Source: Antedon mediterranea (lineage: Eukaryota; Animalia; Echinodermata). From it: a DNA stretch of 64,000 bases. Both the position numbers and the translations under genes were made by a program. The DNA lies in contig NC_092670.1 of assembly GCF_964355755.1 (NCBI RefSeq), positions 26,894,795 through 26,958,794 on the forward strand, written 5' to 3'. Shown one piece after another: positions 4,029-61,000 of the stretch. Position 1 is the stretch's first letter; the number at the start of each line of letters is the position of its first letter. Under the pieces are notes generated by a model, which did not search any database, had not been told where the DNA came from, and saw nothing but the letters and a program-made list of their open reading frames with translations.

Positions 4029-5011
4029 GTTGCCTGAAAATAGAAGAATACCTAAAAATAAATTCAGATACTATAAAATACAAATACAATGCTAATTTCC
4101 TCAAAGTAAATGTTTCACATTCTATTGATTTTATATTGTGTGTAAACACAAAGTAACTCTCTTCAGAGAGGAAGTCCATAATGTGAACATGATGTTTACC
4201 CTTAATGAACAAGACCACTGTGCTGTCAATGAACGGCCCTGGTGATCTAATCATGCGCAGTCGAGTCACTGATGTGCCTACATATTCAGGAAGGCCTTCA
4301 TAAACTTTATATTGACGGCGACAAGTTAATTAAAGTAATGCAGTTGATTTAAAACAATGGCGGCAATATCATTTACATAATATATACAACCTTCTTAATG
4401 AATACAATACATCTATCCAAATATTAGTAATTTCTAAGTATTGTTAGAGAGACGCGATATTCATTCCATTATTTTTATTTTTACATCATTTTACTGTAAT
4501 CTTTGACCCAATAAAAGATATTTTGAAAATGCTATACGTCTGGCATTATTTTAATAAATAAACAAACAAACAACAGAACGATCAAAGCAACACTCATCAG
4601 TAATAAAATAATTAAATATTTAAGATGGAATTAGAATTTAGAATCTTTCAATATTTTCGGATTTCAGAAAGGAATAGGCAAAACCAACGTCGTTTGTAGT
4701 ATTTGTATTTGAAAATGTGAATGTGATTAAGCAAGCTGAATCGAAACAAGATAGTCTCGTCTGGATGAAATAATTCATTCAATCACTTTTGATTGGGTCA
4801 CAATATATTCATGTTTAACAACATTTCCTGCCTTTTCTGTGGCATATTTTGTATGAAGACTTTATGGAAATATTTACGACGTAATAATGTTTGTGACACC
4901 ATCAAAAAGCAGTTAAAATTCCTTTGGAGGAAGTTTAACATATTGTTTGACATTGATTCATAAGAAAATGTAATTAATTGTATTTAAAACTATTTAATTT
5001 ATACGTAAAAC

Positions 5012-5773
5012 AATTAAGCCTTTTCAATTTGTATTGTTGTTATTCTTATATTCCGTATCTTGTTCATAATTGTACATTTACGTTGCAATTTTGCAATAAA
5101 GATTGTTTATTTTGGCCATTTGTCGGTAAGTTAATTTGTACGGTACTATAATAGACCTAAAGGCAATTCCTATTTATTTTTGTATTTGAGGAAACTAAAT
5201 ATCGATTTGATATACAGTATAACAAAGGCCGAACAAAGTAGACCTAAAAGAATGAATGAATTGCTATTTGTATCAAAATCGACTAAAATGTTTGATGAAT
5301 CCAATTATAGATTTGCAGGAAATTGTCGTTCAGTAATCTACTTTGTCTGATCCCAAGATGTCTTTTAAAAGACCGAATCACAAGTTTCGTAAAATAATTA
5401 AGCTTTTTCAATGTTTATTGTTGTTATTCTTATATTCCGTATCTTGTTCATAATTGTACATTTACTTTGCAATTTTGGGAATAAAGATTGTTTATTTTGG
5501 CCATTTGCTGGTAAGTTAATTTGTACGGTACTATAATAGACCTAAAGACAATTCCTACTTACTTTTGTATTTGAGCAAACTAAATATCGATTTGATATAC
5601 AGTATAACAAAGGCCGAACAAAGGAGGCCTAAAAAAATGAATGAATTGCTATTTGTATCAAAATCGACTAAAATGTTTGATGAATTCAATTATAGATTTG
5701 CAGGAAATTGTCGTTCAGTGAGCTACTTTGTCTGATCCCAAGATGTCTTTTAGAATACTGAATCACAAGTTTC
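5012..5773. repeat. Tandem duplication, two ~380-bp copies
   Basis: 5012-5388 and 5396-5773 align at an offset of about 384 with scattered substitutions. Confidence 0.85.
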
Positions 5774-20000: not shown

Positions 20001-23000
20001 TAGAAAAGATTCGAAAAACATAAATCACGTGAAAAAAGATGTTTTTAGCGCTACATGCGCACTGTGTGCGTAAAAATGTCAGGCCTCGAATTTTACCGCG
20101 GCCAGTGCCGTCGGTGCCCTCCCAGTTGGCCTCAATGCCCTCGAAAATGAATAGCACCCACGGCCACTACTGGCCTGCCCTTTTTTTTGCGTTGGCCGCG
20201 AGTGCCCTTCCCGAGTTTTACCAAAATAAAAACCACTGAATTAGATAGAAAATAATGTCAAGAAGATTTGTTTACACGACTCGGTCGAGACGCAAAACTA
20301 TCGCCTGTCTTCGTTGCAAGGGGATTTCCCTAAACGCATTTATTAATACACAAACAGTAAACAAAACATCGAACATTGCAATAGGGTAACCAAAACAATA
20401 TCATCCCGGCCGCCGTGCGTGGTAAATCATGGTATAGATAGTACATTAAAATACAGGGGTGTAAACTTTTAATAATCAAGCTAAAAACGTTCCTCGATCG
20501 GAGGTTACTGAAAGTATTAAAGTCGCACAAATCGAGCTAGCCGCCTTCGATGAAAAAAATATTACACGCACTCGACTCCTAGCTAGCCTATCCTCCCGCC
20601 GCCGATCCGGTCGAGCACACGCAATTCAACCCAATTCAATGCATTGGGAAAACAATTCTATTTGACGCACACGCACCCTCTGATAAGAAATTTCACACAC
20701 AACGTCGTGTGAGAGTACGCGCGGAGGATCGGCGGATCGTTGGAAAAACAATTCCTTTTGACGTACACGCACCCTCTGAGAAGAAAATACCATCTGCATT
20801 CCTGCATGGTGTAGTCCATTATACGTGTAAAATTAGGGGTGTTTACCTTTAGCACCAAAGTTAAACCTGCACCTCAACCCGAAGATCGTTGGAAGTATAT
20901 CATATTTATATTTGATCACACCCACCTCAATAATTCAGCAGACAGATCATCGAAAAATCTTGTTTAACAACGTCGTACACTAAATTACCAAACGAGTTTT
21001 TACCGAATTCAAGGAAATGGTATAGTCCAGAATACACGTGCCGAAGGCTAAACAGAGAGAGAAAGGGGTCGGTGTCCGTCCGTGTTTTGAATTCTTATAA
21101 ATATGGGTTATACTAACAAAAAAGCTTCAGAAATCGAAACTCGGAAAATAACTATAATTTATATTCTACTACATAATGTAATTGGCTTGATTTTTACCGT
21201 GGTTAACACTCTGTGTATGAATAGTTGTAGGTAAGGCCTACAAACAAATTGTTTTTGTATCATGTTTTCTCCGTCGGCTGCTAGCTAAGTAAGGCTGAGT
21301 AGCTTGCTGTTCTAAGGGTTTTTATACCTGTTCCGGGCCTTACTTGGTTGGCTTCACATGCCTTTTTATCGCATTATTTGAAACTAAACGAAACATTCAA
21401 CACAGGACGGTAAACTATAAACGCTGAACATCGTACCTATTTATTATTTATATGGATCGTAAATACACGTAATATTTATATGAAATACAAAAACATGTAT
21501 TGTAGACAGTCCTACTACTACTCCGCGATCTGATGAATAGGGGGAAATCCCAAAACATTTTGCGGGTAGAATTTTTTTTTTTTGAAAAAAATTCCACCCT
21601 CAACCGGAAACAAGCTATTTTTTAATTTTGGCCTAGTTATTAAAATATTTTTTAATTTTGGCCTTGGTGCCCCTTTGATTTAAAACAAATGGCCTTGGTG
21701 CCCTCCCATTTGGCCTTGGTTCCCCTAAAATCAATGAAAACCGGGGGCCAAATGGCCTTGCCCCTAAAATCCCCAAATTCGAGGCCTGAAATGTGCGTGC
21801 ACGTGTGAATTTTTGACATGCTTAAAATGACATGAAACGCATAGAAAGTTGATTAGAAATTTATTTTTCGCAATTTTTAAACGCGCGTTTAACTTTATGT
21901 GGAACATGCCATTTTTAGTCCATAGAAAGTTTGCCCTTGATATAACTTAAATTTTCACAAAGTGTCAATATAAAATAACTTATGGTTTTTTAACTATGAT
22001 CAATCTATATATAAATTTACGTAAGGGCAAAAATCGGTAAATCGTGCGTTATTTCTAGAATGTTTACTCGATGGTATATAAAGTTGGTTCGTACTTTCGG
22101 TACTAATTTTAACCACCTGATGTAACCCTGTCTACTAATTAAATTGAGTTCGATAATTAGTTATTGACGATTGGAACGAATTTAGGTTCAACGATTTGCC
22201 CCAAATAGGGGTGTTTTCCGATCGTGGTATACACTGTCTAATGGATGTCAATTTGAAAAATACCCACACACAATAATACGAGGACACTTCGCATTTTCCT
22301 ATCTCCTCCTACGATAATTGTTTTTAATAGCTGAAAACCGGTTGAACAGTTCGAGTACAGCATCATAATGTTGAAGACAGGCTGATTTTCTTTAAAAAAT
22401 GCTATTTTGATACATGTAATATACGTTTTTACACATGTATTGATTTGTGATGAATGGAACATTCCAAATTATTTGGTTTAACCATAGAGGTATAGATTTA
22501 GATTTATGGGCCCCCTTGGAGAATAAACATAAATAGTATTGCAATGCACTTTTGATCGCAATTTGAATCGCAAATATCTTACTGTGAGTGTTGGTACTGT
22601 TAGATATAATATAAACAAATATACAAATAAACTTTATTACTGTGAGTGTGGGTAGGCCCTACTGTTAGATTATAAACATATAATATACAAATAAATAAAC
22701 GTTATTACTGACAGTTGCTTCTCAACGTTTGTATTAATTAATAATTTAAAAATATATAAACGTTCGTACGTAGTGGTGTATCGTTACATGTACTTTACTA
22801 TTTCAATCGACTATGACAGTGAGAGTTTTAACAAAGTATTAAATCGTAAATGTTTTACTGTATTTAGTGGTATATTATTTATAGGCCTATAAAACATTAA
22901 AAACAATATTTCGTTACTGAGTGGATAAGAATATATTTTAAAATGTTTCCTCTTTGTACCTATCTTCTTCCCCCATCCCTCAACCCTTAATGTTACATAC

Positions 23001-26000
23001 AAAACACAAATTGGGTTTGTTTAAATGAGTCCAAATAAAAAAATTTGACTCATTTTGTTTCTCTCTCGGAAGTAATTCCCAGGGTGCTAATTTTAGCTGA
23101 CTACATAAATCATCGTGTATATTTATTCGTTTCTGTAAACGACAATGTATTATAGTCCTGCAGTACGTACATTTGAAATCTCCATTTTTTTCTCGCTGGA
23201 AAATACTGTGTATTCGAGAAACATCTGTGGGCAAGACCTAGATGGTACGCGAGCGTGCCATCTAGTCATTGAAATTCATAAAATTGCGCATAACTTACGC
23301 TGCGCGACTCTAAAAACATAAAACGTAGTTTCCTGCACTTCTATCTTCTGACAAAGTTATACGATGTAATGTTGATGAGAATTAGAGATACACGTGACAC
23401 AAAATTCTGGGAAAGAAAGAAGAATATAGAAAAAAGAAAAAATTGTGACAATAACAAGGGGTTATCCGCCAAGTACTGTAAAGCGCTGTGTTATGACTTA
23501 TCCAAGGTATAGTCTTCTTCAGCTCACCGTACAATTAACAGCAAGATCAAGCAAGTACAACAGTTTCTGAAAGAGTTGAAGTTGAGCTAGTTGTGAAAAA
23601 TCAGGTTTTTTTCTGGCTGGAAAACATCTGAAATCGAAGACATACATGTCTAAACCAGCAGAAATTGCTACCCCTACTGAAATGGCTAATGAATACCATA
23701 ACAATGGGACTAACAAAGCCAAAAATATACACAACCAAGCTAGGAAAAATACACAAGGTGACATAATCGAAATCGATACCTACACTGAAAGCGATAACAA
23801 AGAAAACTAGATTTGAAATCTTCACGGTGACGAGTTAGGCTATCGCGCAACGAATCGTAACATACAGATGCTATTTATTAGGCTTAGCCTACAGTAAGCT
23901 GCACCACAACTATTGTACAAACAGCGTTGCATCGATCAAAATCGTTTAACAAGCGTCAACAGTTGACTGTATTGGCAAAGTAAACGGTTTAGTTTTTATT
24001 TTACACCACTCGCGTTTATTTAATTGTTTGAATGTGATGACATTTTCAAATTAAAAATAAAGTTCATGTGTGACGTCTGAAGAAGAATGTTTTAAGTAAT
24101 AACATTATTAAAAATTTGAAGAAAATTGATAACGTTTACGCAATATGCGCTTTATTGAAAGTGACGAACTGTGTCAAAAAAGATAAAAATCCAATATTAA
24201 AATTTAGATGGCCATATGGTGACATTATCAGGGAATAATTTCGCCAGTGTAGCATAGCAAAAAGCTATACAAAACAACCTTATTGCTACACATTTCTAAA
24301 ATTGTGTAGCAAAAAAGACAATACAAAACTATGTTTCTCGACTAAAAAATCAGTTTGATTAGCAATAATTGCTAAACAAAATTTTAAAATGAAATTTTTC
24401 CCTGATTATAACATATTTATGATCTAAATTTCACATGAATTCATATCTGCAACTCATTGTGCTTTATAATAACTTAAACATATAGGGGTCACCAGTCATC
24501 CTGAAGAGCTGTAATCGATTTAAAATAGGCTTACTTTTACACAAATTTGCATAAAATTAACCATTTTCAGGCGCACGATTTTTTAAGTATGACGTGCACG
24601 TGTGTCATTATTTGACATTCATAATTCATCAAATATAAAAGAAATGTATCACAAAAATATATAGAACAAAAATCAAGCGCAAAAACGGGCTAAGTGCGCA
24701 AAAGCAAATTTTTTTTAAAAGATGTGAAATGCTTAAAATGTTCTGAACTGTGTAGAAAGTTGATTATAAATTGATTTTGAGCATTTTTAACTTTCAAAGC
24801 GCACGTACGCGCAATTTGACCAAGGTTAAAAATTTCGCTGATGATACAGGAATATGACCCTTGACATGAAGCATACGTTTGTCAAGTGGTATATTTATAG
24901 TCAATCTAAGGTTTTTTAGAAAATTGCGCGTAGTGACGCTACGCAACCATATTTTCATTAAACCAAAGTTTGTTGCACAACTACATATATACGTGCATCT
25001 ACTGGCCAAGTTACAACATAACTGCTACCGCCGTTTTTGAGATCTGCGTGACACAAAAATTGAGCAGAAAAAATGAAATTTTTGACAATAACAATAGGCT
25101 ATCGATCTACAGCGAGCGGATGGAGCTATTGTTGGGTTCTGCCTTTTCGCGTTTCCAATAACTTTCTTTAATCCATTCCATGCTTGCTTGGGGTTACCGC
25201 TATCAAAATCATTCTTTATTTTCTCTCAAAATTTGCGTTTGGCATCATTAATTCGCTTTTTCATTAACTTCTGAATACGCTTGGCAGTTGATGGATGGCT
25301 GTTAATTTGTGAAACAAAGCCCTAATAAATGCTTTTGTTTAAATACTGGGCGTCATTAGAAATAGGGCCAGGAGTGTTAATTGTGAAATAACATGTTTGT
25401 TTTGGGAAAATGTTGTTTAATTTCAGTTATTTTAGATAAAAAATCTCTAGGCCTAGCTAGCCTACGGGGGAAATAAACCAATTTTCGGGTAGGGCGGGAT
25501 CTGAATAAAAAAAATCGGAACTTGGGACCTCTGTCATCTCAACATTCGTTCATTAACTATTTTTTTTTAATGGACTATAAATTATTACAAAGAAACTAAA
25601 ATAGAATTGTGGAAAATGATGACATAAAAGGCCACAGCCATATACAGTAGAACCTTTTACGTTCCCTTGATTTTACGTACGCTTAAAATGACCGATGACG
25701 TCATCATTTTCTTACATTGAGGGCGCAATTTAACAACAACAAAGCATAAAGCCATGGCTGTGTGAGGAACTTATGTGCATTCCCCTACAGCAGCGACTGT
25801 TTTTAATGATAGAAAATACAAGAACATTTATATTTTTATTTATAACACTTTTTTTAAACTAAATCGCACAGCCTGCATATACTGTACTTTTCTAGGCCTC
25901 ACATCTTGCTAGGCCTACTAGCCTGGCCTAGATTAGTCTAGGAAGGGCCTAGGCCTAGCTAAGCTAGTGACCACCTGCATGCTGTAGTCAAACACGGCAG

Positions 26001-34660: not shown

Positions 34661-35473
34661 TATAATATAAAAAGATTTAATGCAAATAATATGTAAAACC
34701 TAGTGTAGATTTCATTAGGGTGTAAGGTTAAAGGTATACTTTTTTTAATCATAAGCATAAGAATAAGAATATATCTATCAAAAGTATTTGTAATATACAT
34801 TTTTCTGAAAAGTCTAGAAAACTTGACAATTATCTTTAGTTTGCCACTATTTGGAGGAGTGTGTTACTTCTCATTTTGTTCATCTGCAGGATCAAATTAC
34901 TATTGATTCATAACTTGTTCAAACTAGTTTTCTGCAGTTTGTCACTTGCATTTGCTAATGTAGACTAGGCTTAGACTGATTAATATATATACGATTAAGG
35001 AATATCCACTTATTTATTATTAGTTATATTTAATACTTTTCATTGAAAATAAAAAACACATTTAAAAATGTTTAGTTTATAGTAACTTTGTGCTGCAAGT
35101 CTATACTTATGAAAGTAAAAGTATAATAAATATTCTTTATGGTTGAAAATATTTTTTTACAAATTTTTAGTGATTTTGAATTTATTTGAATATTTTGAAT
35201 GGCAGTTTGTGTTCAATAGGGTGTTGCAACAATGGGTGGGGTTCTTGCATTGCATTCTAACAGCAAATTGATTGGATTTAATCGTTATTTTTAGGCTGGT
35301 TACTGAAAATTTGTCCAGTCTCTGCTGCCAAAAATTAGGATTAATTTATTCACATGGTTAATAACACGTAGCAGAAACATTAGCATTTCTATCCTTCAAG
35401 GCTGTATGTGGTTATTTGAGCTTTTGTATTTTTTTAATGGTTTAACAAAAAAATAAGGTAAAATTTAAACCAA

Positions 35474-36349
35474 ACTAGATTTGAACTCGTCACTACGGAC
35501 GAGTTGGGTTATCCGCACGACAAACTCCACGTGCACGTCAACGCACAGAAAAACGATTATGCCATTGAAAAAATGTTAGTGCGCTCTCTATTTTGTGTCA
35601 CGTCTAAGTATACAGTATATACGGCATACGTACTGCATACAGTGCAGTACAGTTATTGACGCTTTAAAACGTGTCATCACAATTTTTAAAATGGTGAAAT
35701 CATATGACGTCACAATGTCCGGTTAGCCATATTCATGCATGATTCGGTATCTACAACTCATCTACTTCCAGAATCTGTAATTTTAAAAAAGGCATAATTT
35801 TAACGAATTTTTTAACTTTTTCATCAAAAACGTGCGGAAATTGTTCAATTCTACGTGCTCGTATGACGTGATTTTAAGTCGAAACTGTTTGAAAGTTGGT
35901 AAAATTACTAGAAAAGGCTAAAAAAACGATGTTTTTGCGCTACGTGCGTGGGAATTTTTGAAATGCTCAAAATGACATGAAACGCGTAGAAAGTTGATTA
36001 GAAATTGATTTTTCGCATTTTGAAATTTTAAACGCGTGTTCGCGTGTAACTTTCTGTGAAACATGCCATTTTTAATCATAGAAAGTTTGCGCATGATATA
36101 ACTTAGATTTTCACCAAGTTTCAATACAAAATGACTTTTAGTTTTTAATCTATGATCAATCATTGAAATTCATAAAATCGCACGTAACTTACACTGTCGA
36201 AAAGCTTGGCTGCACATCTCCAGCTACAGGTCAATCTTATGACAAAGTTATACAATCTTATGTTGGCCAGAATTAGAGATACGCTGCAAACAAAATAGAA
36301 AAAAAAAAAAAAAAAAAGATTGTGACAATGCCGAGTGCGGATAACCAAT
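35474..36349. mobile_element. Helentron/DINE-1-like repeat, uninterrupted copy
   Basis: Runs ACTAGATTTGAACTCGTCAC...GGTTATCCGC to ...GCGGATAACCAAT (short subterminal inverted repeat), with no TSD. Confidence 0.6.
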
Positions 36350-37249
36350 TATGCAAACCTGACATCACTTTCTTTAGGGGTAAAAGTATTGGACTGTATG
36401 TATGTATTTGAATCAATATTCCTAAGGCTAATGAACAAAAATTGTCTAAAATGGATAGAGATATCCAAGAAAAGGGATATTTATATTTTAAATTAATTAG
36501 TTTCATTTGGGAAAATGAAATCGGGCTTATAAATCCATGCTTAAATTTAATAGTAAATACATCCCAATTTAAAGAAAACCATAGCCCTGGCATGTTTTGT
36601 AGTTATGCCAGAGTTAATAGATCATGGGATGAATGTAAATACTTGGGAACACTTGAGTAATAACTGAGATAACAATCAAAGAGATTGGAAACGCTAGCGA
36701 TTTCCCTTTGTGTGGCACTTGCCGCCAGGTTCAGTGTAGTGTACCTCTTCGTTATGCAAATTAGCTAAGTCACCGGCCAATCAGCGAATTCGCGCAAGCG
36801 CAGATTAACTGTTTATCAAAATCAGTGATCCATGAAAAAAGTTTTTAGAGGGGTTTTTAAATCTCGCGAGCAGGAGATTTTTTCTGTAAAAATGTTTATT
36901 AACACCAGAGTACAACACTACAAGACTTAATTGAAAAAAAAAGATTTCTTTGGGATAATTATCAAATATTAGCCTACATATAATAGGCCTACAGTAGTAG
37001 GCCTATTCATTTAGCCAGGCCAGCATATTTATTATTAATTATTTTATTAGGCCCCTATATAGGCCTAGGCTAATTATTAATAAATACTAGACCAAGGCCC
37101 TAGCCTATAGGTGTAGTAGTATAGTAGGCCTAGAGGTTCGGTTCAATAAGGCATTCATTTATGCCTATAATTATTAGGCTATGTCACATAATGTTAATAA
37201 TTTTAAATCAGGGAAAATTAAATAGCAATAGCAATTAGGTTTTTTTCAG

Positions 37250-38098
37250 TTATGTAACCGATGACATTCACCATGCATCATGGTCCAAGTGTGGTTCAGG
37301 TGTGATCTCAATTGCAAAATCAATATTAGAGAATCAATCTGAAATAAATATGTTTTTATCGGAAGAGATTATGGATAGTCTGCTACAGCTGCAGATATCC
37401 TAAAAGCTGTTTTCCAGCTGAGGATAAACAGAAAGTTTATTCATGATTTTTTGAATAAGATAATCACTAATATTAATAATACAGAAACTGAAAAGGAGGC
37501 TTATATTCAAAGATTTTTGACCTGCATAACTACATCATTTTTTAAACAACAAAATGAAAAAATTGAAGTAAGATATAATATGGAAATAGAGTTAGTAACT
37601 ACAGCAGACAAGCAAATCATCCATCATATAACAGGTTCTATTATAAGAAAATTGAAAAAAAGGTACATGAACAAGCCAGTTGAAAGAGAGATGCTTAGCA
37701 ATCTGACCACTGATAATGGTGTAGACAGTAGATGTTCATGGACACAAAGTTTGGACAGAGGCGGTTTGATTTACCCCTTAACAAAATTTCTCAATTTAAT
37801 TATTTTAATTGAGCGTTGGATTAGGGAGTTAATAAACAGTGATAGTTTACAACATGATTCTTTAATTAACATAAAGTCTACAATACTAAAGTATAAACTG
37901 GTAACACATATATGGAGTAACCTTATAACCTCACCAAATACACAGAAATGGATAGTGTTGGACAATGTTGTTGAGTTATTTTTAAAAATTAGAGGGTTTG
38001 CTTTAACTGAACAACTTAAAAGCAAAATGCAAAAGAAACGAAAGCAACAAAAACTTGCTGCCGGAACTAAAAAAGCATTAAGAAAAGAACTACAGTAA
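37250..38098 (+). CDS. Second gene of the P-like element, resembling the P-transposase C-terminal domain (one frameshift near 37377)
   Basis: ORF 37451-38098 extends upstream to a stop at about 37377, with an acceptor at 37249. Motifs HITGSIIRKL, WTQSLDRGGLIYP..F.....E and LFLKIRG plus a basic tail. Confidence 0.65.
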
Positions 38099-38214
38099 AA
38101 GAATTAAACAAGTAAAATAAAAAATAAGCTATATGCTGTAATTTATTAACTGGAGTACTGTAAATGTTTTGTGCAAAATAAAAAAAAAGTCAAATTTACT
38201 ATTATAAAATGCTA

Positions 38215-39614
38215 TTAAGACTTTTTTACTCTGCGTTTAAGTGGAATGTTTAAATTTTCTTTGTCCAATTCAGACATAATTCGCTTAGTGTTGCCTCTTA
38301 TTGGTGCAACTGCTGCTGACCCAACAACCCTAAGTGTATTTAATGTATGTCGAACATTATCAATTGTTGTATTGTCACCTGCTCCCTGTTTGTGTCTATA
38401 ATGTCCAAAGTGCTGTTCGAGTACATCTTGATTAAACACACACGTATTTACAAATTTGGCTCCTTTTCCCAACAAATAACGAACACATGCTACAATAGAA
38501 TTAATGGTGATATGAAAGCCATGTATGGTTTGCTGACTTAGTAACATACGCTTTCTTTCTGCATCAGCAAATTTTCCTACTCGTTCTTTTACATCATTTT
38601 CCCATTGCTCAAGGTATCCTAAAAACTCTGTCTCTAAATATGAAAGTCTTGGATCATGGATGTCTGTGTTTCTGGATAACTTACCGGCGTTATTGTTTCT
38701 TGTATTTAAGCAATCAAAAAAGCGATTCATGTGAGTTATGAAGGTGATTGTTTCTCTTGCACTGTCACCATATACTTCTTTCATGTGCTGTGCAACTCTG
38801 TTACTGAAAACTTGAGCAGCTAAATTGACTTTCATCACACTGAAAGGGGTGAGGTCAATATGTGCTCTTGTTAGTTTTGTTTTTTTATACAATTTTCCTT
38901 CTGTGTGTTCTTCAAACAGTTGAACTAAACTCATCCATGAAATGTTCTGTCCACCTTTCCACAGATTTCTTGATTTTTTGTGACTACCAGAATTTGAAAA
39001 ACAATTTCTAGCTGTTTTTAGCAGATGAGGGACATCTGAAATAAAATATAGATTCCGATTTGGACAACTAAACTTGTTTTTAAGCCCATGAGAATCAAAA
39101 AATGATCTATTCTGGCTAGCACCATCACATGTAAGATACAAAACTTTGAGTCCAACATCTATTTCAAGTAGTTCAATTAATGGCTCTCCATAAAATTGTG
39201 TGGAGATCTTCAGAACGTAGTCCATTTGTTGCAAAAACTGCCAATGGAAATTTTAAGTTACTTGTTGCCCCTCGTACCATAATAACTAATGCACTTTTTG
39301 CCATCTCATTGGTGATTTCATTTTTCTTATTTTCAATCTTATGTTATCTAAATTTGTAAATCCAATCAATTCATTAGTGGAGGCAGAATATACCAAGTCT
39401 TCTTTTATTTTAATTTCATCCTGTAAAATTCCAACATATGATCGCTATTCTTCAGTAAAGAGTCCTTTTCTTTTAGCCTCCTCATGTAGCATTTCTAAAA
39501 CTTCTTTCTGGTAACCTAATTTACTATCAATGACGTGGCTATAATCATATGATGTTCTTTCACTTGGTAAACTTATAAAACCAGTTTCTCTCAGTGCTTG
39601 ATATACAGTTGAAG
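38215..39614 (-). pseudogene. P-element/THAP9-family transposase core, degraded
   Basis: HTH-region YQALRETGFISLPSERT, catalytic QDEIKIKEDL, TCDGASQN, SDVPHLLK (D(2)H), MKVNLAAQVFS, FFDCLN and NQDVLEQHFG. It has one in-frame stop (about 39446) and about two frameshifts (about 39340 and 39180). Confidence 0.88.
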
Positions 39615-41746
39615 TTCAAATGACTGATTGTGTTTCATAGATTTTCGCAATGATTGTCTGTATGTTGCACAATGGGGGGCACCTGTTTGTTAAAGTAGTT
39701 AAAAGGAAGCAGTGATCAGTTCGGATTGTTTGTGTGTATTCTGCTTCACATTCATGTTTTCCTGCAATGCAGTTAAAGTCAGGATTTCCTATGCACACAG
39801 TATATTTATCAAACAAGAATTTTAAAAACATGAATAAATCATTAAACACGTGCACCTTCCGTATACTTTCAAATATTGCATTATTATCAGATAAGCGCTT
39901 GTTATGAACGATTACGGTTATATTAAAGTTTTTGTCAATATTAACTGCCATCTTAACAGAAAAAAAAACGTTTCTCATAGAACTGAATGAGTGTCAGATC
40001 ACTAGTTGCCTTAATTACTTCAAAACCAATGTTATTCAGCTTTTCTTGTTTCCTTGTGCAATCAAATTGCAACTGCTGGTATGTCACATAATTGATGTTA
40101 TCTTCTGTCTCAAGTTTTGTCAATGAAGATCCAAGTACTAAATAACTCTCAATTGGTTCCTTATGTTCCTGCAATACAAACAGAAACACTCATTTATAAC
40201 CACACTATAATGATTAAATACTTTATACAATCTTTTTACACAACCTATGTACTTCAAGCAGTGGTTCATTGTGTACACTATGAACAACACAATCACAATT
40301 TGCAAAATTTCCAGTGAAGTCACAATGCTTAACTTGCTGACGAGTGAGTGGTTTTCGTTGAGATGGAAGACCATTAACACAATATTTGTATCGTCTACCA
40401 ATTAATGCTTTTCTTTTTTTTCTTGTCATGATCTGTTATAAATAAAAGAAAACATTGATCATTGGTTTGCACGGATTTCTGTACATGCATTTCAGGCACT
40501 TACTTCTAGGCAAGAAACACTAAAAGCCCCACTAAGCAATATAATCCCCTCACCCTTCCCTCCCCTTGACAAGGATTTTCCAGATGAAATGTAATCAAAC
40601 TAATTTACCTTTTAATTACGTAAACTTGTTGTTTTTGGCTCAAATTTTCGACTTAAAGTGGATAACTTTAATATTACTTTGATATGGCCACTTTAAATTT
40701 AGAATATTTTGACCTTCATTTTTTTTGTGTTTAAAGGGACAATACATCTTTAAACTGGAATTAGGCCTTTTAGATGACAATAAAACTTCAAATGACTGAT
40801 TGTGTTTCATAGATTTTCGCAATGATTGTCTGTATGTTGCACAATGGGGGGCACCTGTTTGTTAAAGTAGTTAAAAGGAAGCAGTGATCAGTTCGGATTG
40901 TTTGTGTGTATTCTGCTTCACAGTCATGTTTTCCTGCAATGCAGTTAAAGTCAGGATTTCCTATGCACACAGTATATTTATCAAACAAGAATTTTAAAAA
41001 CATGAATAAATCATTAAACACGTGCACCTTCCGTATACTTTCAAATATTGCATTATTATCAGATAAGCGCTTGTTATGAACGATTACGGTTATATTAAAG
41101 TTTTTGTCAATATTAACTGCCATCTTAACAGAAAAAAAAACGTTTCTCATAGAACTGAATGAGTGTCAGATCACTAGTTGCCTTAATTACTTCAAAACCA
41201 ATGTTATTCAGCTTTTCTTGTTTCCTTGTGCAATCAAATTGCAACTGCTGGTATGTCACATAATTGATGTTATCTTCTGTCTCAAGTTTTGTCAATGAAG
41301 ATCCAAGTACTAAATAACTCTCAATTGGTTCCTTATGTTCCTGCAATACAAACAGAAACACTCATTTATAACCACACTATAATGATTAAATACTTTATAC
41401 AATCTTTTTACACAACCTATGTACTTCAAGCAGTGGTTCATTGTGTACACTATGAACAACACAATCACAATTTGCAAAATTTCCAGTGAAGTCACAATGC
41501 TTAACTTGCTGACGAGTGAGTGGTTTTCGTTGAGATGGAAGACCATTAACACAATATTTGTATCGTCTACCAATTAATGCTTTTCTTTTTTTTCTTGTCA
41601 TGATCTGTTATAAATAAAAGAAAACATTGATCATTGGTTTGCACGGATTTCTGTACATGCATTTCAGGCACTTACTTCTAGGCAAGAAACACTAAAAGCC
41701 CCACTAAGCAATATAATCCCCTCACCCTTCCCTCCCCTTGACAAGG
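39615..41746. repeat. 960-bp near-identical direct duplication of the transposase 5' exons
   Basis: 39615-40574 matches 40787-41746 (offset 1172) with a 212-bp spacer. At least one substitution separates them (GKHE versus GKHD). Confidence 0.95.
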
Positions 41747-42738
41747 TAAAAGCTAGCCTAGACTTAATTTAGGCGAAATTACGCTAATGAATGCATATGA
41801 ATCCCTGTGACTAGCCCTGGCTAAATAAGGCCATGCGATGACATTGGGCCTACTCTAAGGAAAATATATATAAATACATAGTGTATTTCTTTTTCAAATG
41901 ATTAAAAAATACACGCATATACCAACATTTATATATTTAACTATCATTAAAAGGTAAGTAAGTGATACAATATCATAAATAAGATAAAGATTTTTTTGTT
42001 CCAAATGTGACACAATTACGATTGTGTATTTAGCGTATTTAGCGAAAACTTTAAAAAACCAGTAAAATCATCATACTTAATTACATATTAAACATTACTT
42101 TTTCCTAATAAATTGTACATCATACCACAGAAAAATAGTTATTCTATCATAATAAAACTCATTAATTACACAAGAGTGTCTTTTAGTAAAATTGCAATGC
42201 TCTCAAAAACTGGTGTTTTTAGTAGCCGTTCCGACAACGACACACTAACCCAGTCTAGAAGATGAGGTAGTCCATCTACGGTTGTCTACGAGTCTAGAAC
42301 TACCCTACTTTGCAGACCAAGTTCTACTAAAACAAGATTAATTTTTCTTTTAAAAAACAGTTAAATACCAAACATTATTTAAAACTCTTACCTTTTAATA
42401 TCCTAAAAATATAATTTGAAGTTCAAATTAAGTGTAATTTGCTGCAGGAAATCTGGTAAACTGTTACTGTCTCGTATATTGCGAAGCGATCTCCGTCGAG
42501 CGCACACTTAATTTACATAACAATGAAAATACTAAGACGAAATAAGTAGAGACAAGCGTTTCCAATCTCTTTGATTGTTGTCTCAGGTAGTTTTTAACTG
42601 CGATGTTTACAGAAGAACATTAAAAAAAATTTGAAATCAATTAGAAAAAAAAAATCATTTTATTTACTGTTACCAATATATCAAATATACACAAAATTCA
42701 TACAATATCATTGAGTTTCTTGTATTGACACTAAAACA

Positions 42739-45700
42739 TCAGGAACTTTTTAGTTTCTTCTGTTTAGAGTCTGTCATACCATGTGCAGCCTGAACTACAC
42801 TTCCATAAATGTCCACATTCTGAGATGCTTTGCGTTTATGACTTTTATTCTCATTTAAATAAACACACTTTGTATCATCATTTGCACTTTCTTGTTGAGA
42901 ATTTGCCTCATCTTCCATTTCAGTGATACATTTCAGTGTGTCATCATCTGGATCTTCCTCGATGAAGACCTGTTCAAAATATGATAAAATATCCCTTTGT
43001 CTTGGATCCTGAAAAAACACAAAGCAAGAAAAGCCATTTGTCTCTAGTTAGTTATCCGCAACGAAGTTGCAGGATAACTCCTTGTGATTGTACGAAATCA
43101 ACATCATCATCATCATTTTTTTCTTATTTCTTTCTGTAATTTTTGTGTCACACGTATCTGTAAAACTTACAAACATAACATTTCGTAACTTTCTCAACAT
43201 ATCGTCATTCATATGAAGTTGTGCAGCGAACCTTTTCAGCATGTGTACAATTGCGCAACGTGACAACATACCACCAAATAACATTTTAAATTGAAACTTT
43301 ACAAAAGTTTCATTTATATTATGCGCTAACTTTCCGTGTTTTACACAAAGTTATGCGAAAAAACAATTTCTAATCAACTTTCTACACGTTTCATGTCATT
43401 TTAAGCATGTTAAAAACATTATTTTTTCGAGTGATTTCGGTTTTTCCAGCCTTTTCCAGTAATTTTACCAACTTTTAAACAATTTCGACTTAAAATGGCG
43501 TTTTTGAAGAAAAAATTTAAAAAATTGTCAAACAGTCGTAGTTTCTAAACTAAACAATGAAAGTTATTTTTATTACATAATATTCTGGAAGTTGATGAGT
43601 TGTAGATATCGGATCATGCATTAATATGGCTAACCGTACATTGTGACGTCATCATATGGCCACGTGAATATAAAATATAGGATGTTTGTATCTTTCGTCA
43701 TAGCTCATCACAGTTAATAGAGCGCATCTCCACTTATCCTTTTTCCATTTTCATCCCGATTTTGATATTGTCTAGGTCAATCAACTGTCTTTCGCATGAG
43801 TTAAAAATATTTTAATTTTTATGACGTCATCATGTCTAAAAATGTAAATAACGTGGGTCAATTATTTTCATCTTTACAGTAAATTACAGTAAATTTCAAT
43901 CGGTTATAGCTCATCAGAATAAAAAGTGATAATCATTAAACGTTTTCTAGAAGCTATTGGATTGTAGATACGAATCATGTGAACATTTTGCCAATCCTTT
44001 TTCCATTTTCATCCCAATTTTGATATTGTCTAGGTCAATCAACTGTCTTTCGCATGAGTTAAAAATATTTTAATTTTTATGACGTCATCATGTCTAAAAA
44101 TGTAAATAACCTGGGTCACATATTTTCATCTTTACAGTAAATTTTAATCTGTTATAGCTCGTCAGAATAAAAAGTGATAATCATGATTACAACGTTTTCT
44201 GGAAGCTATTGGATTGTAGATACGAATTCATGTGAACATTTTGCCAATCGGATGTTGTGACGTCATCATATGGCCAGCTGAATAAAAAAAGTCGTAATTT
44301 CATATTTTGCGTAATAGTTCATCACATTTAAAAGAGCGCGCATCTATATTTTACGTATTTAAATTTTATATGTGGTTGCTTTTATAATTTCCTTCCGAAA
44401 TTGCTATCTTAGTGTGTCATTTTGATACCGTCGCCATGTTAAAAATATGAATAAACGGCGTGTCCCGTAATTTCACCTATTCTACACTGTATGTGATATG
44501 TATACAGATTATACTGTTTATACTGTATATACTATACGACACAAAATTGACAGAATTCAGCACTAACAACATATCATATTCTTCAGTTCAGGTCATAATG
44601 CCATAATCTTTTTCTGTGTGCAAAATTCCAACGTATGATGTGCACACGGCGTTTGTTGTGCGGATAACTAACTCGTCAAAGTGACTAGTTCAAATCTAGT
44701 TAAATTATTATTATTATCTTATTCAACAACCTGACAGCTCCACATTATCAATATACTTCCAACTGACTAAAGACTAAGTAGATTTCTGTCATTTGATTGG
44801 AGGATTGTGGGTCACATGATAGCCAGTAAATATTATATTATTATAAGTTTTTAATTACGTCAACAAGAGTACAATGCATTATGTGAGTTTTGCGCATTCA
44901 TTTTTGTTACACGCACAACACAAGGCTAGGCTGATCATGATTGTTCTATTCCACGTCCAAAATTGGAGATCTTAGTCTAGATTCTCGTTAAAGATAGGTA
45001 CGTTATAAAAACAAGTATTGAAAACCACTTGCTAATAAATAATAATTGCATCATAAAATAAACAGCAATACACTGTCTGCATTTTATAAATATAAGTGGG
45101 CCGAAACGTCCAGGGCCGTCGTTCTTCAACCCTGTCGTATACATCTATGCTTTTGATTTATAGCCATGTGATTAGACATACGATTGGAAGACTATATTTA
45201 GGATTTTTTCAAATCAATAACTGCTATAAAATGGTATCACATCGTCGCCACAGCGAACCAAAAACCAAATGTCGGAAAATGTTAATACTTTGACCACATA
45301 CATACACAAAAACACACACTAAAATGATTAGAAGAGTTCCTATGCATGCAATTAAAAATTAATAATAGGGTGGTCTTGTCTACCAAAAAAAAAAAGTCTT
45401 AGAAATTATTGTTAGGTGTATAATATGCATTGGTTAAATATGATTTTTTTTTAAAGTGAAATATTTATAGTACCTTGAAATTTGTTGTTTCAGCATTTGT
45501 AAAGTTGTCCTTTGCAAGTCCTGCTTTTCCAAGAATATTTAGCTTCTCCTGTATTAGAGGCCTATGTGAAATGAAAACCAATATGGTTAAAATGTATTTG
45601 TATTCCCAAGATTTAATAAATTCTATATTCAAGAGCAACTAAATAAGTAAATGCAGTATTAAATCTAATGGCAATTTTCTGTTTATTAATTAAAACAAAA

Positions 45701-48700
45701 ATGTACAGTGATTCTCATTACCAAATATAGTCATCTGCTGTGTCCTTTGCGACAAGATAGCGTATTGTGACAGACTCTTTCTGACCAATGCGATGTACTC
45801 TATCCTCTGCTTGCATCAAGATCTACAAGAAAATAGTGTTAACAATGACAATGGTTTGTATATCAAAACAACACACTAGTAAAGTAAGGTTTGCCATATA
45901 CAGTACGATGTAAATTTCCTTAGCAGTACAACATATACATTGGCATGGTGTAGTGACACACAACATTTAAAACAAAAAGCACCTGTATGAATTAATGAAA
46001 TGTGGGCTTGTGTTGGCACTGAAAGCAACTTCATTCACCCATTCATAATAACATTTATTTCTTATCTTTCAAAGTAAACAAAATAACAATTTAAATATAA
46101 ATAATTAAGAGGCAAACCCCCCAGAAAGTAATAACATTTGGAGGTTTTCCTCCAAAAAAACTTGTGACGGGTAGCCAGTTAAGAAGTTGTAATCATTTTG
46201 AAGTTTGAACAAACAGAAAACAAAACAAGACAAACAAACAGGTAATGCAAGACAATGACAAGTTAATAAAAATAAAATACTATGGAAGCACAGAAAAACC
46301 AGAATAAATTTGTTCACTTATTTATTATTATAAGTTATTTATGGAGTAGAATATTATGTTGCATTAATGTTAATTTGGTAAAGGGCGGGTGGAGGTTACA
46401 GGAGGATCTAGTTTTATGGGTATGAAAACTATTATTTTTTATAAAGCTGCAAGAAAGTTTAGTTGGAAGTAGACAGTTGACATGTTCATAGACGAAGGTG
46501 CATTGTTGGAGGGTATTGATGTTTTGGATCGGACAGTTAATAATTTACGGTCAGAGAAAAGCTCACTAGTGTGATCTAGGCGTGATGCACCAGAGAGGTG
46601 CCGAATAGCTTTTTTTTGGAGAATAAAAATGTTGTTGAGGTTTGAGACATAGTTGTTTGCCCAGACAATATTACAGTAAGAAATAAAAGGTAAAACAAGT
46701 GAACAATATATCATGCGAAGGACTTCTTTGGGTAAGTAAAATGAAAGACGATATAAAATTCCAATATTTTTCGAAATTTTTGTTTCGATTTCTTTAATGT
46801 GGTGTTTGAAGTTTAGTTCTTTGTCTATTTCTACTCCAAGAAATTTGGTACGCTTAACAATAGGAATTTTGTGGGCAGCAAGGTAAACATTATGAGTGTC
46901 GTTAATCAAATCTTGGTGTCGAAAACCAAAAAGCATAAAATGGCATTTGTTAATATTTATTGAAAGTTTGTTTGCCTTGAAATAATCGTTCACGTTCTTC
47001 AATTCCCTATCTACTTAATTTTGGGTGATATATATTATGCATATATACACTTACTTGTCTTCAGTTACATTTTCATGTCAACATTAAGCGCTCACACACT
47101 GGATCTTTTCAGTTTAGTTTAGTTCTGTTCAGTTGCAAGAAAGAAATTAGGTACTTTAAAAACATTATGTAAACTTACACCAGGGTTCCAGAAAAGTTCA
47201 GCAAAAATGACGAGTGATGCAGCAGTGAGTGTAAGACCAGCATTAGCTGCAGTAATTGATAATACTGCCGCCACACATTCTTTGTTACTCTGGAACGTGT
47301 GGCAATTCTCTTGTCGTTTTTCAACATTTGTTGATCCATCAATGCGTATATGTTTTATTTTCTGAATTGATAATACAGTATAATAATTTTGTTAATAATA
47401 GAAAGTAAGATTACAATAATAAAAGAGTGTACAATATAAAATTATTAAATAATTCATTAAAAAATCACTAGCTGATCATTTTTTTTATACTACTGGCAAA
47501 GATACTCACCTCAGGGCAGGTTTCAAATGTTTTAAAATCTTGTCAGTATATTTTAATAATCCATTGAGGAAAAGTAGGTTATTTTGGCCTCTATATTGGA
47601 TCCAAGATGGCAGATACTGTTGAAATGTAGTTTAAAACCTTCCCAGGAAAAATTTATAACAAAAAAACCCCACAGACTCTCTCTTAAAAAAAGTAATTTA
47701 AACTAGATTTGAACTCGTAATTATGGATGAGTTAGGTTATCCGCTGAGTGAACATCATACGCTAGAATATTGCGCACAGAAACGATTATGCCATTGTGAC
47801 CGGAAGAAAATTAAATGTTAGTGTGCCCTCTATTTTGTGTCTGAGTATATAGAGTATCACGGTGTGACGTCACAAGGATAGAGGGCGCTGCATGGTTGCT
47901 AGCCAACCAAAAAATGCGTTCAATGCTACTATGTAAAGATCTGTATTTCTATCAAATTATGTATCTTAATAGCTTGATTTTTTTTAACTTAAACTGTAGT
48001 TGAAGAATAAATAGATTATTAAAAACAAATATTTAGTTAGTTATCTTTTGAAATTTTAGTTTGTTTTTATTGAAAATTACTAAGTTTTAAAATGGCTACT
48101 TCAATAAGCCTATTCCAAACCTTGGAGTCACTCAGGCAGGTTGAACGCATTTTTGGTTGCGCTAGCAACCACGCAGCGCCACCTACCGTCGTGACGTCAG
48201 CACTGTAATACTCTATACAGTATACACTATAATTTTTAAACTTGGAACTCTCCAACCCAATTAATTGGAATTAATTTATCATTTAGGAATTGAGAACTAT
48301 CTTGTCTATCTGATTGACATGAGTTATTATAATGCGATACCTTTTGTTTGTAAATGCTATTGTCAATTTGTTATTTGCTTGTTCATTGTTATATGGTTTT
48401 CGATCTATATGTTAAATACGTGAAATTTATAAAATCGAGTATAACTTGTGACATTTCTTGCACATCTACAGATATAGTTCAATCTTCTGATAAAGTTATA
48501 CAATCTTAGAATTAGAGATAACCTGCGGACAAAATTCGTGAAAAGAAGATAGGGGAAAAAAAAGATCCTGACAATAGCAAGGCGTTATCCGCCAAGTGCA
48601 GATAACCAATTATATTACTTTTTTTATTTGTAAATTTTTAAATTTTAGCATACCTTATCTGTAAGTACATCGCATAACATATCAAGCACTGTCTGATGAT

Positions 48701-56633: not shown

Positions 56634-57820
56634 CTCTACAGACCCACCCCAACAGTCTATACAGACCCACTCCAGCAGCCTCTCAGACCCACCTCACCAG
56701 CCTCTACAGACTCACCTCTGTCGCCTCTACAGACCCACCCTAGTATCCTCTGCAGACTCACCCCAGCAGCCTCTACAGACCCACTCCACCAGCCTCTACA
56801 GACTCACTCAAGCAGTCTCACCCTAGCAGCCACTACAGACTCACCCAAGCAGCCTCTACAGACTCACCCAAGCAGCCTCTACAGACTCACCCCAGCAGCC
56901 TCTACAGACTCACCCCAGCAGCCTCTATAGACTCATCCCAGCAGCCACTACAGACTCACCCAAGCAGCCTCACCCTAGCAGCCACTACAGACTCACCCAA
57001 GCAGCCTCTACAGACTCACCAAAGCAGCCTCTACAGACTCACCCCAGCAGCCTCTATAGACTCACCCCAGCAGCCTCTATAGACTCATCCCAGCGGCCTC
57101 TAGAGACCCATCACAGCAGCCTCTACAGACCCATCACAGCAGCCTCTACAGACTAACCACCAGCAGCCTCTACAGACTCATCCCAGCGGCCTCTACAGAC
57201 CCACCCCAACAGCCTATACAGACCCACTCCAGCAGCCTCTCAGACCCACCTCACCAGCCTCTACAGACCCACCTCTGCAGACCCACCCCAGTAGCCTCTG
57301 CAGACTCACCCCAGCAGCCTCTACAGACCCACTCCACCAGCCCCTACAGACTCCCCTCAGCAGCCTCACCTCAGCAGCCTCTACAGACTCACCCCTGCGG
57401 CCTCTACAGACCCACCCCAGCGGCCTCTACAGACTCACCCCAGCAACCTCTACAGACTCACCCCAGCAGCCTCTACAGACTCACCCCAGCAGCCTCTACA
57501 GACTCACCCCAGCAGCCTCTATAGACTCATCCCAGCGGCCTCTAGAGACCCATCACAGCAGGCTCTACAGACTAACCGCCAGCAGCTTCTACAGACTAAC
57601 CCCCAGCAGCCTCTATAGACTAACCGCCAGCAGCCTCTACTGACACACCCTAGCAACCTCTACAGACTCATCCCAGCGGCCTCTACAGACTCATCCCAGC
57701 GGCCTCTACAGACCCATCCAAGCAGCCTCTACAGACTAACCCAGCAGCCTCTACAGACTAACCCCCAGCAGCCTCTACAAACTTGCCCCAGAAGCCTCTA
57801 CAGACCCACCTTAGCAGCCA
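56634..57820. repeat. C-rich 23-bp minisatellite, about 50 units
   Basis: Consensus TCACCCCAGCAGCCTCTACAGAC, with variant units. Confidence 0.95.
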
Positions 57821-58081
57821 CAGTATGCCGTAAGTAGTAAATCGTATTGTGCAGCAGTGTGTACAGAATCAACACACGTATCCTTTGCGAGGCTGAGTTA
57901 AACGGACATTTTCAGCGAAAAAAGATGCTTGTATGAAAATTGTTTCCTGCTCAACATGATGTCCTAGCCTGGCACTAGCTAGCTAGTGTAGTTGGCTACT
58001 GACTTTAAATATACTTCCTAGCTGGTTAGGGCTGGTTAGGACTGAGAGGGGTAGCAGCATACTACTCTAGGCTAATAATGC

Positions 58082-61000
58082 GGGTCCTACTAAACACCAC
58101 TCGCAACCACGTCCTACCACTTGCTACAATGCGCAACCACTCGCAACCGAAATTCATATTAATTAAAGTACATTTGGCTTATTTATTGTCTTATTATCAA
58201 TAAAAACCTATTTTTATACACAAAATGGTGCTTTTATACACAAAAAACCTTGTTAAACCGTCGTACTATATAACATCGATAGAAACTGCGTCGCTTGAAT
58301 TGTTGAATGCGTTAACAATGGGACTATTTTGCCACTATTTCCACTTTGAATGTTTATATTCAAATTAATATTGGAATGTTAAATACCTATTTTAATACTT
58401 GCTTGGCCTATCATAATAATATACTTACTTAATTAATAATAATAATTAATTAAATCTTGCCTTTTTTTTTGTCTTTTGTGAGATTCACTCACATTTATTT
58501 CATTCTTTACAATTGTTACAATAATCTATATCAATTTTGTTTCAGTAGAAAACTATCTCTGCAGCTTAAAGTTTTTTTTTGTTTTTCTTATTTTTAGTAT
58601 TTTACATATATAAAAAGTTAAAGCATTTAAAAAATAGACAAAAGTTATATAAAAATATACATCACATAATATAGGTTCACAATTGCCATTACAACGTCAC
58701 AAAATAAAATATACTGTAACTCATATAGCACCAGTAAATAAAACTAGAAAGGTAGAAACCATACTAGAATACTAAGTATTGTGTCGTAATAATATTTTCT
58801 CGTGTTTTTAACCTGTTATTGTTTAACAATTATACATTTTTACATTGCTAAAATAATATTTTTTACTTTTTCCCATTATTTTATGCTTTCCTCTCTTTTA
58901 TACACTATATCACATTCCATTCTGAATAGAATTCCTTGTTTAAAAGATTTCCATAAATTAAAATAACTTTTATTTGTAACATCAGCCAGCATCTTTTGTT
59001 TATAAACCGTGAAAGCAGCAAATGTATATATAAAATCAGTAAGAATATTTCTTGTTCCAATTACCAGATTTTGAAAAGACATGTTTATATGATTGGTACC
59101 TTTTAAAACAATCTCTATTTTTGTCCAAAAACCTTGAATAAATTTACAAGTAAAAAACATATGCTCCTCATCTTGTACAGTACCTCTCCACATCTACCAC
59201 ATATATTAGTATCTTTTAGTTTTACAGATAAACAACCTTTTGTTTGTTGCTAAAATTCTATTTAACAGTTTGAAATTAAAGTGTATTAATTTTTTATCTT
59301 TCATTTTACAAACTTTAGATAACCAACATGACTTCCAATCAATATTCAAATTATGAAAATATTTTTCCCATTTTCCTTGACAAACCGGAGGGTCAAAAAT
59401 TTCCTCCACAAAACAGAGATAAATACTCTTTGTTGTGATGTCCTTATATCTATTCTTAATGACATTTTCTGTTATATTATAATAACAATTTTCCTCGTAT
59501 TTGATTATAGTTTTCCATTGTATTGGTATCGCTTTTTAATAAGCACATGTATTCATTTAACCAGTTTGCTTTGTACTTTAATTTTACCAACAATTCTTTT
59601 GAAGTTATGAATCTATTTTCTTTAATAATATCCTTCACTAAAATAATGCCACATTCAATCCAACGTTTATAACATAGTGATTGGTTTTTAAGTTGTATTA
59701 ACTTATTACCCCACAACTGTCCATTCATTATATAATCATATGTGTCTACACTTCTTTTACAGCAATTACAGTATTATACTTTTCTCATAAAACATAGGCA
59801 TTTTATGTATAAAGTGGTTTTCATCTGTCATGTTAAAAATAATATTTTCTGAACATAAATTATTAATATAAAATTTTGGAATAAATTTCCATTTTGCTTC
59901 ATCTTCATGTAACAACCTTTTTAGCCATGTGACATTAAGTGCTTTTGTATGTAATTTAAAATCTGGCATTTTAATTCCACCTTCGTTTAGGTTTCCAATT
60001 AAGGTTTTCCTTTTTATTTTTTCAGATTTTTTACTCCATAAAAATGTATAACTTTGTTTGTTAACTATGTCATAAACATACTTTGGTACAGTAATAATAT
60101 TTGCATTGTATGTAAGTTTTGCTAGTGCAAGTGACTTCAATATAATTACTTTCCCATAAAGTGTTAAATTTCTAGAACTCCATAATTTCAAAATCTTTTC
60201 AAAATCAACCAATTTATCACTCCAATTTTTAGTTTCACAAGTCTTGTAATCATATCCCACATATATTCCTAATATCTTTATCGGCTTTTTTTCCCAACAT
60301 AAATCAAGTGGTTTATCACTTCTATTTTTCCATTTACCCATCCACATAGCTTTTGATTTATGTTTGTTTAATTTCAAGCCTGACATTTCACAAAATTCTT
60401 CCACAGTTTCAACCGCTGTATGAAGACTCTTTTCATTACCAACATAAAGTATTGTGTCATCAGCTAAAACTGACTTATTCTAGCTTCGACATTTACATTT
60501 GGTAATTTAATTCCCTTGTAAATATTACTATTTCTTATATTAGAAGCCATTATTTCGACCAAAAGAATAAATAAAAGTGCCGATAGCGGACACCCTTGCC
60601 GAATGCCTCTTTCCATTCTGATGTTTTCTGATACCCATCCATTATTAATTGTGACACTCTCTACTCTGTTATACAGAATTTTTACCCATTCACAAAACAC
60701 ATTACCAAATTTTAATTTTGCTAATACAGCAAACATAAACTCTCTACTAACCGAGTCAAAAGCCTTTTTAAAGTCAAGAACCATTATAGCCCCTTCAATA
60801 TAATTTTCTTCCGTATAATAAAGTAGATCTTTAGCTAAACGTATATTTTCCCCCACAAACCTATCTTTAATATAACCCTTTTGGTCTGAATCAATTAGTG
60901 ACTTAATGACCCTGCGTAGTCTATAACTTAACACATGGGCAAGAATTTTATAATCAGTATTTAGGAGTGTAATTGGACGCCAGTTATTTAAATTTTGTTT

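Follow-up and report, generated by a model that had tools for sequence, protein, structure and literature searches.

The element and its two genes

The window studied here, a stretch of 64,000 nucleotides from the echinoderm Antedon mediterranea (contig NC_092670.1, positions 26,894,795 to 26,958,794; guanine plus cytosine content 33%), contains a P-element-like transposon with two convergent genes: a transposase gene on the minus strand and, on the plus strand, a second open reading frame (ORF) here called ORF2. An earlier note, made from the sequence alone, had proposed that ORF2 encodes the C-terminal domain (CTD) that canonical P transposases carry on the same chain. The pair of 32-bp terminal inverted repeats (TIRs) that it had placed around both genes was found at 36664–36695 (+, the ORF2 end) and 42555–42586 (−, the end at which the transposase starts), with 31 of 32 bases matching. 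The tail-to-tail arrangement was likewise confirmed, but not the distance of 117 bp: the AT-rich spacer between both stop codons (38099–38214) measures 116 bp. Both genes are broken, in keeping with the decay noted earlier, and the copy is dead in both; its value is therefore that of a pointer to a lineage.

Contigs from seven sequencing runs were compared with the window. Those from runs X5 and X7, which belong to two other studies, diverge from the window at exactly 36664 and continue into different flanks, which fixes the left terminus at this position; these flanks are further insertion sites of the family. The 7-mers next to the TIRs, GTAATAA (36657–36663) and GTAGTTT (42587–42593), are candidates for a decayed target-site duplication (TSD). 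They agree at only four of seven positions, and the window copy is therefore without a clean TSD.

The transposase gene

The 5′ coding part of the transposase (40752–41601, −) starts with an ATG at 41601 behind an acceptor-like AG and contains a Cys-rich N-terminal region; it is frameshifted. The middle part (39173–39615, −), with one stop and frameshifts, holds the end of the helix-turn-helix (HTH) and the N-terminal strands of the RNase H fold including the first catalytic Asp. The 3′ ORF (38215–39252, −), which comes into register only after its initial ~25 codons, carries the second catalytic Asp, the DxxH motif, the GTP-binding insertion domain, the catalytic Glu and a tail of 66 aa. Aligned with the homologous protein P0005, the gene starts at the ATG at 41601, has one stop and several frameshifts, and lacks ~107 residues. 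In their place (~320 nt, ~107 codons) stand a 963-bp duplicate (39612–40574), which is 99.8% identical to 40784–41746 and absent from other copies, and a very high-copy repeat of ~180 bp (40575–40753); contigs of other copies connect 39614 to 40752 via ~320 different bases. The repeat has short TTCCAG/CTGGAA ends, and its contig depths in runs X2 and X6 add up to about one million. It is MITE-like (miniature inverted-repeat transposable element) or SINE-like (short interspersed nuclear element), and a search of 35400–44800 against Rfam gave no match.

That the minus-strand gene inside the TIRs is of the P/THAP9 type, as the note had claimed, is borne out by profile searches. For the 3′ ORF these gave Pfam TNP-like_GBD (E = 6.9e-19) as well as 6P5A_A, the P transposase of Drosophila (E = 7e-10), and for the upstream pieces TNP-like_RNaseH_N; the Pfam matches of the transposase are PF21787, PF21788 and, weakly, PF21789. 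With the clade profile 6P5A_A is the sole match in the PDB (E = 1.5e-38). The C/DxxH motif between the second Asp and the Glu, a signature of the P superfamily (PMC9587614), is present as DVPH in the 3′ ORF, and its D and H are invariant in 77 of 77 rows. A Pfam search for a THAP domain was negative for three window fragments (duplicated 5′ part) and for the homologs P0005, P0009 and P0021; such a domain was found in P0080, which also belongs to the short-tailed clade described below.

ORF2 and the C-terminal domain of P transposases

The main frame of ORF2 in the window (37379–38098, +) encodes 239 aa, comprising the end of a helical N-terminal extension, a P-CTD-like domain (approximately residues 71–220) and a basic C-terminal end. 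The 5′ part of the gene sits in another frame (37239–37403), and a pyrimidine run at 37240–37249 ends in an AG (37248–37249), a putative splice acceptor for the 5′ coding remnant (37240–37384). Compared with the window, other copies are longer by 7 bases at 37384 and by ~137 near 37250, and shorter by 5 at 38091. A repaired ORF2 would by arithmetic have about 335 codons, the same size as its homologs.

Four direct homologs of the window ORF2 were found (210–336 aa). With a five-sequence profile, 2,704 cluster representatives were found at E ≤ 0.001. The best 150 of these, to which inspection for size was confined, are 113–480 aa long (median 312) and none is transposase-sized; fused forms may occur among the lower-ranked matches, and the profile also weakly matches fused CTDs. 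In the ESM Atlas only weak, unrelated matches were obtained, and in BFVD nothing at E ≤ 0.001.

Likeness to the P CTD, which had been named as one test of the proposal, is present both by profile and by structure. A profile of 145 ORF2-family sequences matches 6P5A_B, the CTD of the P transposase, with E = 1.4e-6 (next match 0.32), and 35 of the 145 match Pfam Tnp_P_element_C at E ≤ 0.1. The AlphaFold model of ORF2 has a pLDDT (predicted local distance difference test) of 92. In a comparison of this model with 48,161 chains by VIA-align, 6P5A_B came out on top (Z 11.3, root-mean-square deviation 2.5, 118 of 118 residues; next Z 7.0), and so it did with the model of a near-full-length ORF2 from locus L017 (Z 12.1; next 7.6). 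By Foldseek it was second by E-value (0.59), with a probability of 0.98 and a target TM-score of 0.76. The match is convincing because of its full coverage and the independent match by sequence, and the ORF2 protein is predicted to fold as a P transposase CTD. Of the three CTD motif blocks that the note had recognized in order, blocks 1 and 2 align with 6P5A_B by sequence profile and the whole domain does so by structure.

The own N-terminal extension attributed to ORF2 was also recovered: the L017 model has an additional helical part of ~150 aa, which is absent from 6P5A_B and without a clear structural match (best Z 6.0). A candidate acidic exon lies upstream of ORF2 in L017. Within the family the Leu that maps to L661 of the Drosophila melanogaster P transposase (DmTNP; numbering inferred from alignments) is invariant (145/145 rows); the roles of L661 and of K637, to which we return below, were taken from 10.64898/2026.08.31.747927. 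A GGL motif and the basic C-terminal end are conserved, the last 35 aa of the homologs having a median net charge of +8 (n = 113). Pfam zf-C2H2_4 is matched by 11 of the 145 members at E ≤ 0.1. Certain relatives combine a C2H2 finger with an acidic N-terminus (L019 5561–6775 (−), P0109, P0111 and cluster mates), and for some of these the database name is "C2H2-type domain-containing protein".

A clade of short-tailed transposases

The set of homologs comprised 91 transposase proteins (605–2000 aa), among the named sources of which are Amphiura, Haliotis, Ptychodera, Mytilus, Crassostrea and thrips. In 81 of them the Glu motif could be scored, and in 75 of these 81 the tail is 55–90 aa long (median 66); five have tails of 43–50 aa and one has 127. 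It should be noted that P0091, one of the 75, is a truncated protein of the canonical type. The tail of the window transposase had been put at about 50 aa after the catalytic Glu, which its measured length of 66 aa corrects. Conserved in the tails are a G (95%), an N (95%) and a P-L-P motif close to the end, after which comes the stop.

In a tree of 145 cores, 135 rows are separated from 10 rows containing the fused-CTD type with an SH-like (Shimodaira–Hasegawa-like) support of 100, and the same split has a support of 99 in an IQ-TREE run with 33 rows. The input consisted of the window, 85 of the 91 proteins and 59 of the 80 metagenome loci described below, the others having had too little in one frame; P0091 and P0095 were counted with the fused type, although neither extends beyond the first CTD motif. 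The short-tailed clade served as the seed of the search, sampling on the fused side is sparse, and neither tree has an outgroup, for which reason they leave fission versus fusion undecided.

Linkage of both genes in other copies and other loci

Single contigs span both stop codons in X1 (37575–38247), X5 (37789–38262), X9 (37626–38336) and X6 (38046–38609). They represent three studies with two organism codes between them; X1 is identical to the window flank and possibly its source, and is thus not independent. The depth in X1 is 5.6 for the flank contig and ~28–41 for element contigs in both genes, which fits several copies, depth itself being no copy number. A derivative without ~495 nt (37735 to 38231), a segment that takes in the 3′ half of ORF2, the whole spacer and the final codons of the transposase, was seen in X1, X2, X5 and X9 and is likely a non-autonomous subfamily.

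More distant relatives were obtained by scanning metagenomes with the transposase alignment; of the 269 stretches confirmed in this way, the best 80 were examined. Among viral contigs the same alignment found 0 relatives in 129 stretches. The Glu motif could be scored in 63 of the 80 loci, and 49 have a closed tail of 55–100 aa. An ORF2-family match lies downstream on the opposite strand in 19 of these 49. Since gaps between the genes reach 2.7 kb, short contigs can miss the convergent gene: it was present in 9 of 9 loci with at least 2 kb of downstream sequence, in 12 of 15 at 1.5 kb and in 14 of 19 at 1.2 kb or more. Counting also L068 and L079, whose tails are broken, and L059, in which the motif could not be scored, the total is 22 of the best 80 loci, which are not 22 independent cases because some are near copies (L027/L044) or stem from common samples; the match at L007 is weak. 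A same-strand match to ORF2 or the CTD was found in 0 of the 49 short-tailed loci, and related transposases are short-tailed, so that these relatives do not have the CTD fused in frame, which had been named as an outcome adverse to the proposal. Absence of ORF2 from other copies had been named as another, and ORF2 is present both in copies of the window family and in distant relatives. Five loci with tails of 233–269 aa hold the CTD in frame. At L001 an intact pair of short-tailed transposase and ORF2-family gene lies head to head (4371–5399 (−) and 5762–8617 (+)), and the ~360 nt that separate them contain a GAT microsatellite; the possibility that this is a tandem head-to-tail junction was rejected, no TIR or second transposase having been found there.

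Two loci, L051 and L066, are complete, with both genes within TIRs and perfect 7-bp TSDs, and in L025 a 34-bp TIR pair encloses both genes. Measured against the TSD of 7–8 bp that is typical of the P superfamily, the flanks agree at 7 of 7 positions in L051 and L066 and at 4 of 7 in L025 as in the window copy; the TSDs of the relatives are GTAAAAT and GTAAGAC. The window copy begins with CTG and these three relatives with CAT, and the TIRs of L051 and L066 have an inner TGGAAACG motif in common with those of the window. For 13 pairs the distances between transposases correlate with those between ORF2 proteins (Mantel rho 0.43, p 0.002; 0.48 without L044). A weak further sign of linkage is that contigs of equal length are recorded for close homologs of ORF2 and of the transposase (P0096 and P0008, 61,880; P0097 and P0006, 67,086), though an equal-length pair elsewhere (P0104 and L041, 5,123 nt) was shown by tblastn to be false.

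Interpretation

The two-component system with a separately encoded CTD that the note had envisaged gains support from the convergent layout, the likeness of ORF2 to the CTD, the short-tailed clade of relatives and the recurrence of ORF2 beside the transposase within TIRs. The window element is a dead two-gene copy of the P superfamily, in which the transposase is without CTD and the CTD-like protein of the convergent gene probably docks on it in trans. In DmTNP a flexible, disordered linker carries the CTD, which is placed against another subunit (PMC7776569); its separation would therefore be structurally easy and its supply in trans possible. The ORF2 protein would probably dock at the CTD site of the transposase, its extension and the transposase tail replacing the linker, and it would likely boost the efficiency or the precision of transposition.

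Several points weigh against docking in trans. The Foldseek E-value for 6P5A_B is poor, even though the probability is high, and Z values of 11–12 are below the line of ~13 at which VIA-align advises caution with helical bundles. As a single sequence the window ORF2 finds nothing useful in Pfam or the PDB, and the position mapping to K637 of DmTNP is Lys in just 42 of 145 family rows. Five of the 19 short-tailed loci with at least 1.2 kb downstream have no convergent match; L001 is among them, its ORF2-family gene lying upstream and divergent, the sole such case among the best 80 loci. No ORF2-family match was found at L004, L016, L032, L041 and the broken L021. The Mantel correlation speaks for common history rather than contact, because linked genes are inherited together whether or not their products bind. 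Finally, a 2026 preprint reports that DmTNP without its CTD equals the wild type in excision and integration, and that THAP9 without it integrates ~60% better (10.64898/2026.08.31.747927). The fused CTD may thus be dispensable or even inhibitory, which makes a regulatory role of ORF2 a real rival.

ORF2 would then be a separately expressed brake: the short transposase would be active alone, and the ORF2 protein would bind the enzyme or the element ends and limit activity. We regard this as rather unlikely, although it would account for the increase in THAP9 integration on deletion of the CTD and for the unchanged DmTNP, agrees with the poor conservation of the K637 equivalent, and would make use of the separate control that an own promoter and the convergent layout would permit. 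The cited work is, however, a preprint based on human-cell PCR (polymerase chain reaction) and colony assays. Moreover, retention of ORF2 across the breadth of the clade would be more typical of a needed part, and conservation extends to its GGL motif and its basic C-terminal end. Clearly less probable is a CTD-derived ORF2 that acts apart from the transposase, for example by binding DNA or chromatin for expression, targeting or nuclear import, and so belongs with the accessory proteins of TIR elements. The ~150-aa helical extension not found in 6P5A_B would fit such a role, as would the zf-C2H2_4 matches and the precedent of Kolobok lineages with varied accessory genes, some of them on the opposite strand (PMC9587614). 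But ORF2 is found where the transposase is without just that domain, for which complementation is the simpler explanation, and the five long-tailed loci with fused CTD have no separate convergent copy (their downstream DNA being short, 273–4249 nt).

Very improbable, finally, are a single polypeptide made by trans-splicing and a one-off event. That both genes start behind acceptor-like AGs would suit trans-splicing; the transposase tails, however, reach a stop after a conserved motif, and the L017 ORF2 has its own candidate upstream exon. The heavy rearrangement of the window copy might suggest a one-off inversion or a misassembly, which is ruled out by the single contigs that bridge the junction in three studies and two organism codes and by the convergent gene in 22 of the best 80 loci.

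A broader proposal, which we put forward as possible but doubtful, is that a large branch of P elements in molluscs, echinoderms, hemichordates and arthropods has an obligate two-subunit transposase. Its CTD subunit would be expressed from a promoter of its own, would be needed for strand transfer and could gain DNA-binding modules such as C2H2 fingers. Transposition would thereby come under two-key control, and its targeting part could be exchanged. The split state of the CTD may be as ancient as the fused one.

What makes the lineage of interest is that the P transposase has been described as a single six-domain enzyme (PMC7776569) and its CTD as a fold restricted to homologs of DmTNP and THAP9 (10.64898/2026.08.31.747927), while the role of this domain is unsettled: the structure shows DNA contacts, whereas the preprint finds it dispensable or inhibitory. 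Where the CTD is a protein of its own, it can be added, removed and titrated free of truncation artefacts. A split transposase might also be offered for conditional gene delivery. In addition, thousands of "uncharacterized" invertebrate proteins of 300–450 aa (the 2,704 representatives mentioned above) would receive a family assignment.

Other features of the window

On both sides of the element are inverted copies of another repeat (35473–36142 and 43273–44701, 75–92% alike), so that the element may have inserted inside a long-TIR element; further related copies of this repeat lie at 21802–22005, 19784–20047 and 24725–24802. Contigs of organism B (X7, X9) track the left flank at 36450–36645 and end before the TIR, and a loose X7 sequence resembles, by eye, the right flank near 42612–42640, which suggests an empty site. 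In the right flank an acidic, exon-like frame of 102 codons follows an acceptor-like AG (42739–43047, −); it has no convincing Pfam match. Farther away are fragments at 59769–62508 (−) and 46442–47014 (−), which we take to resemble the endonuclease and reverse transcriptase of a non-LTR (long terminal repeat) retrotransposon, tandem arrays at 11529–13554 (period ~106 bp, partly inverted) and 56634–57821 (period ~23 bp), and an open frame of 237 codons rich in hydrophobic residues (3360–4070, −), possibly an exon of a host membrane protein.

Comparison with known systems

The element has several of the features by which the P superfamily is defined in the Repbase sense, namely a DDE (Asp, Asp, Glu) RNase H fold with a GTP-binding insertion, the C/DxxH motif and TIRs. 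Of the GTP-dependent cut-and-paste chemistry of the superfamily, it is the sequence of the GTP-binding domain that is seen. Assignment to the canonical single-chain type of DmTNP and THAP9 was rejected, since the stop comes 66 aa past the Glu, the CTD is on the opposite strand and the window fragments have no THAP match. Assignment to Kolobok was rejected as well: the termini are C..G with 7-bp TSDs in the relatives, versus RR..YY termini and a 4-bp TTAA TSD in Kolobok (PMC9587614). A two-gene P branch is apparently undescribed: no description was found in the literature, Repbase, Dfam and subscription journals lying outside the search, and stand-alone CTD genes are not mentioned in the main text of 10.64898/2026.08.31.747927 or in the excerpted text of its companion 10.64898/2026.09.03.748810, although the supplementary tables of both might include them.

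With the 87-kDa P transposase of D. melanogaster (6P5A/6PE2) and vertebrate THAP9 the window transposase shares the HTH, the RNase H core, the GTP-binding insertion, the DDE residues and DxxH, and with the P element the element shares TIRs of ~31–32 bp and the fold and motifs of the CTD, here located in ORF2. It differs from both in that a second, convergent gene encodes the CTD together with a helical extension of ~150 aa, that the transposase ends ~66 aa past the Glu in a clade-specific tail, and that the window subclade is without a Pfam THAP match. The 7-bp TSD of its relatives differs from the 8-bp TSD of P and is of the GTA type seen in Galileo, another member of the P superfamily in Drosophila (consensus GTAGTAC; PMC2775673). 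Galileo, unlike the window element, has long, internally repetitive TIRs, and the excerpted text of PMC2775673 mentions no second gene for it. A convergent second gene inside TIRs is a feature that the element has in common with ProtoRAG/RAGL (PMC7204232) and KolobokP (PMC9587614). In those systems, however, the second gene (RAG2L and a His-Me nuclease, respectively) is unrelated to the transposase, whereas the domain to which ORF2 is homologous forms part of the transposase chain in the sister lineage.

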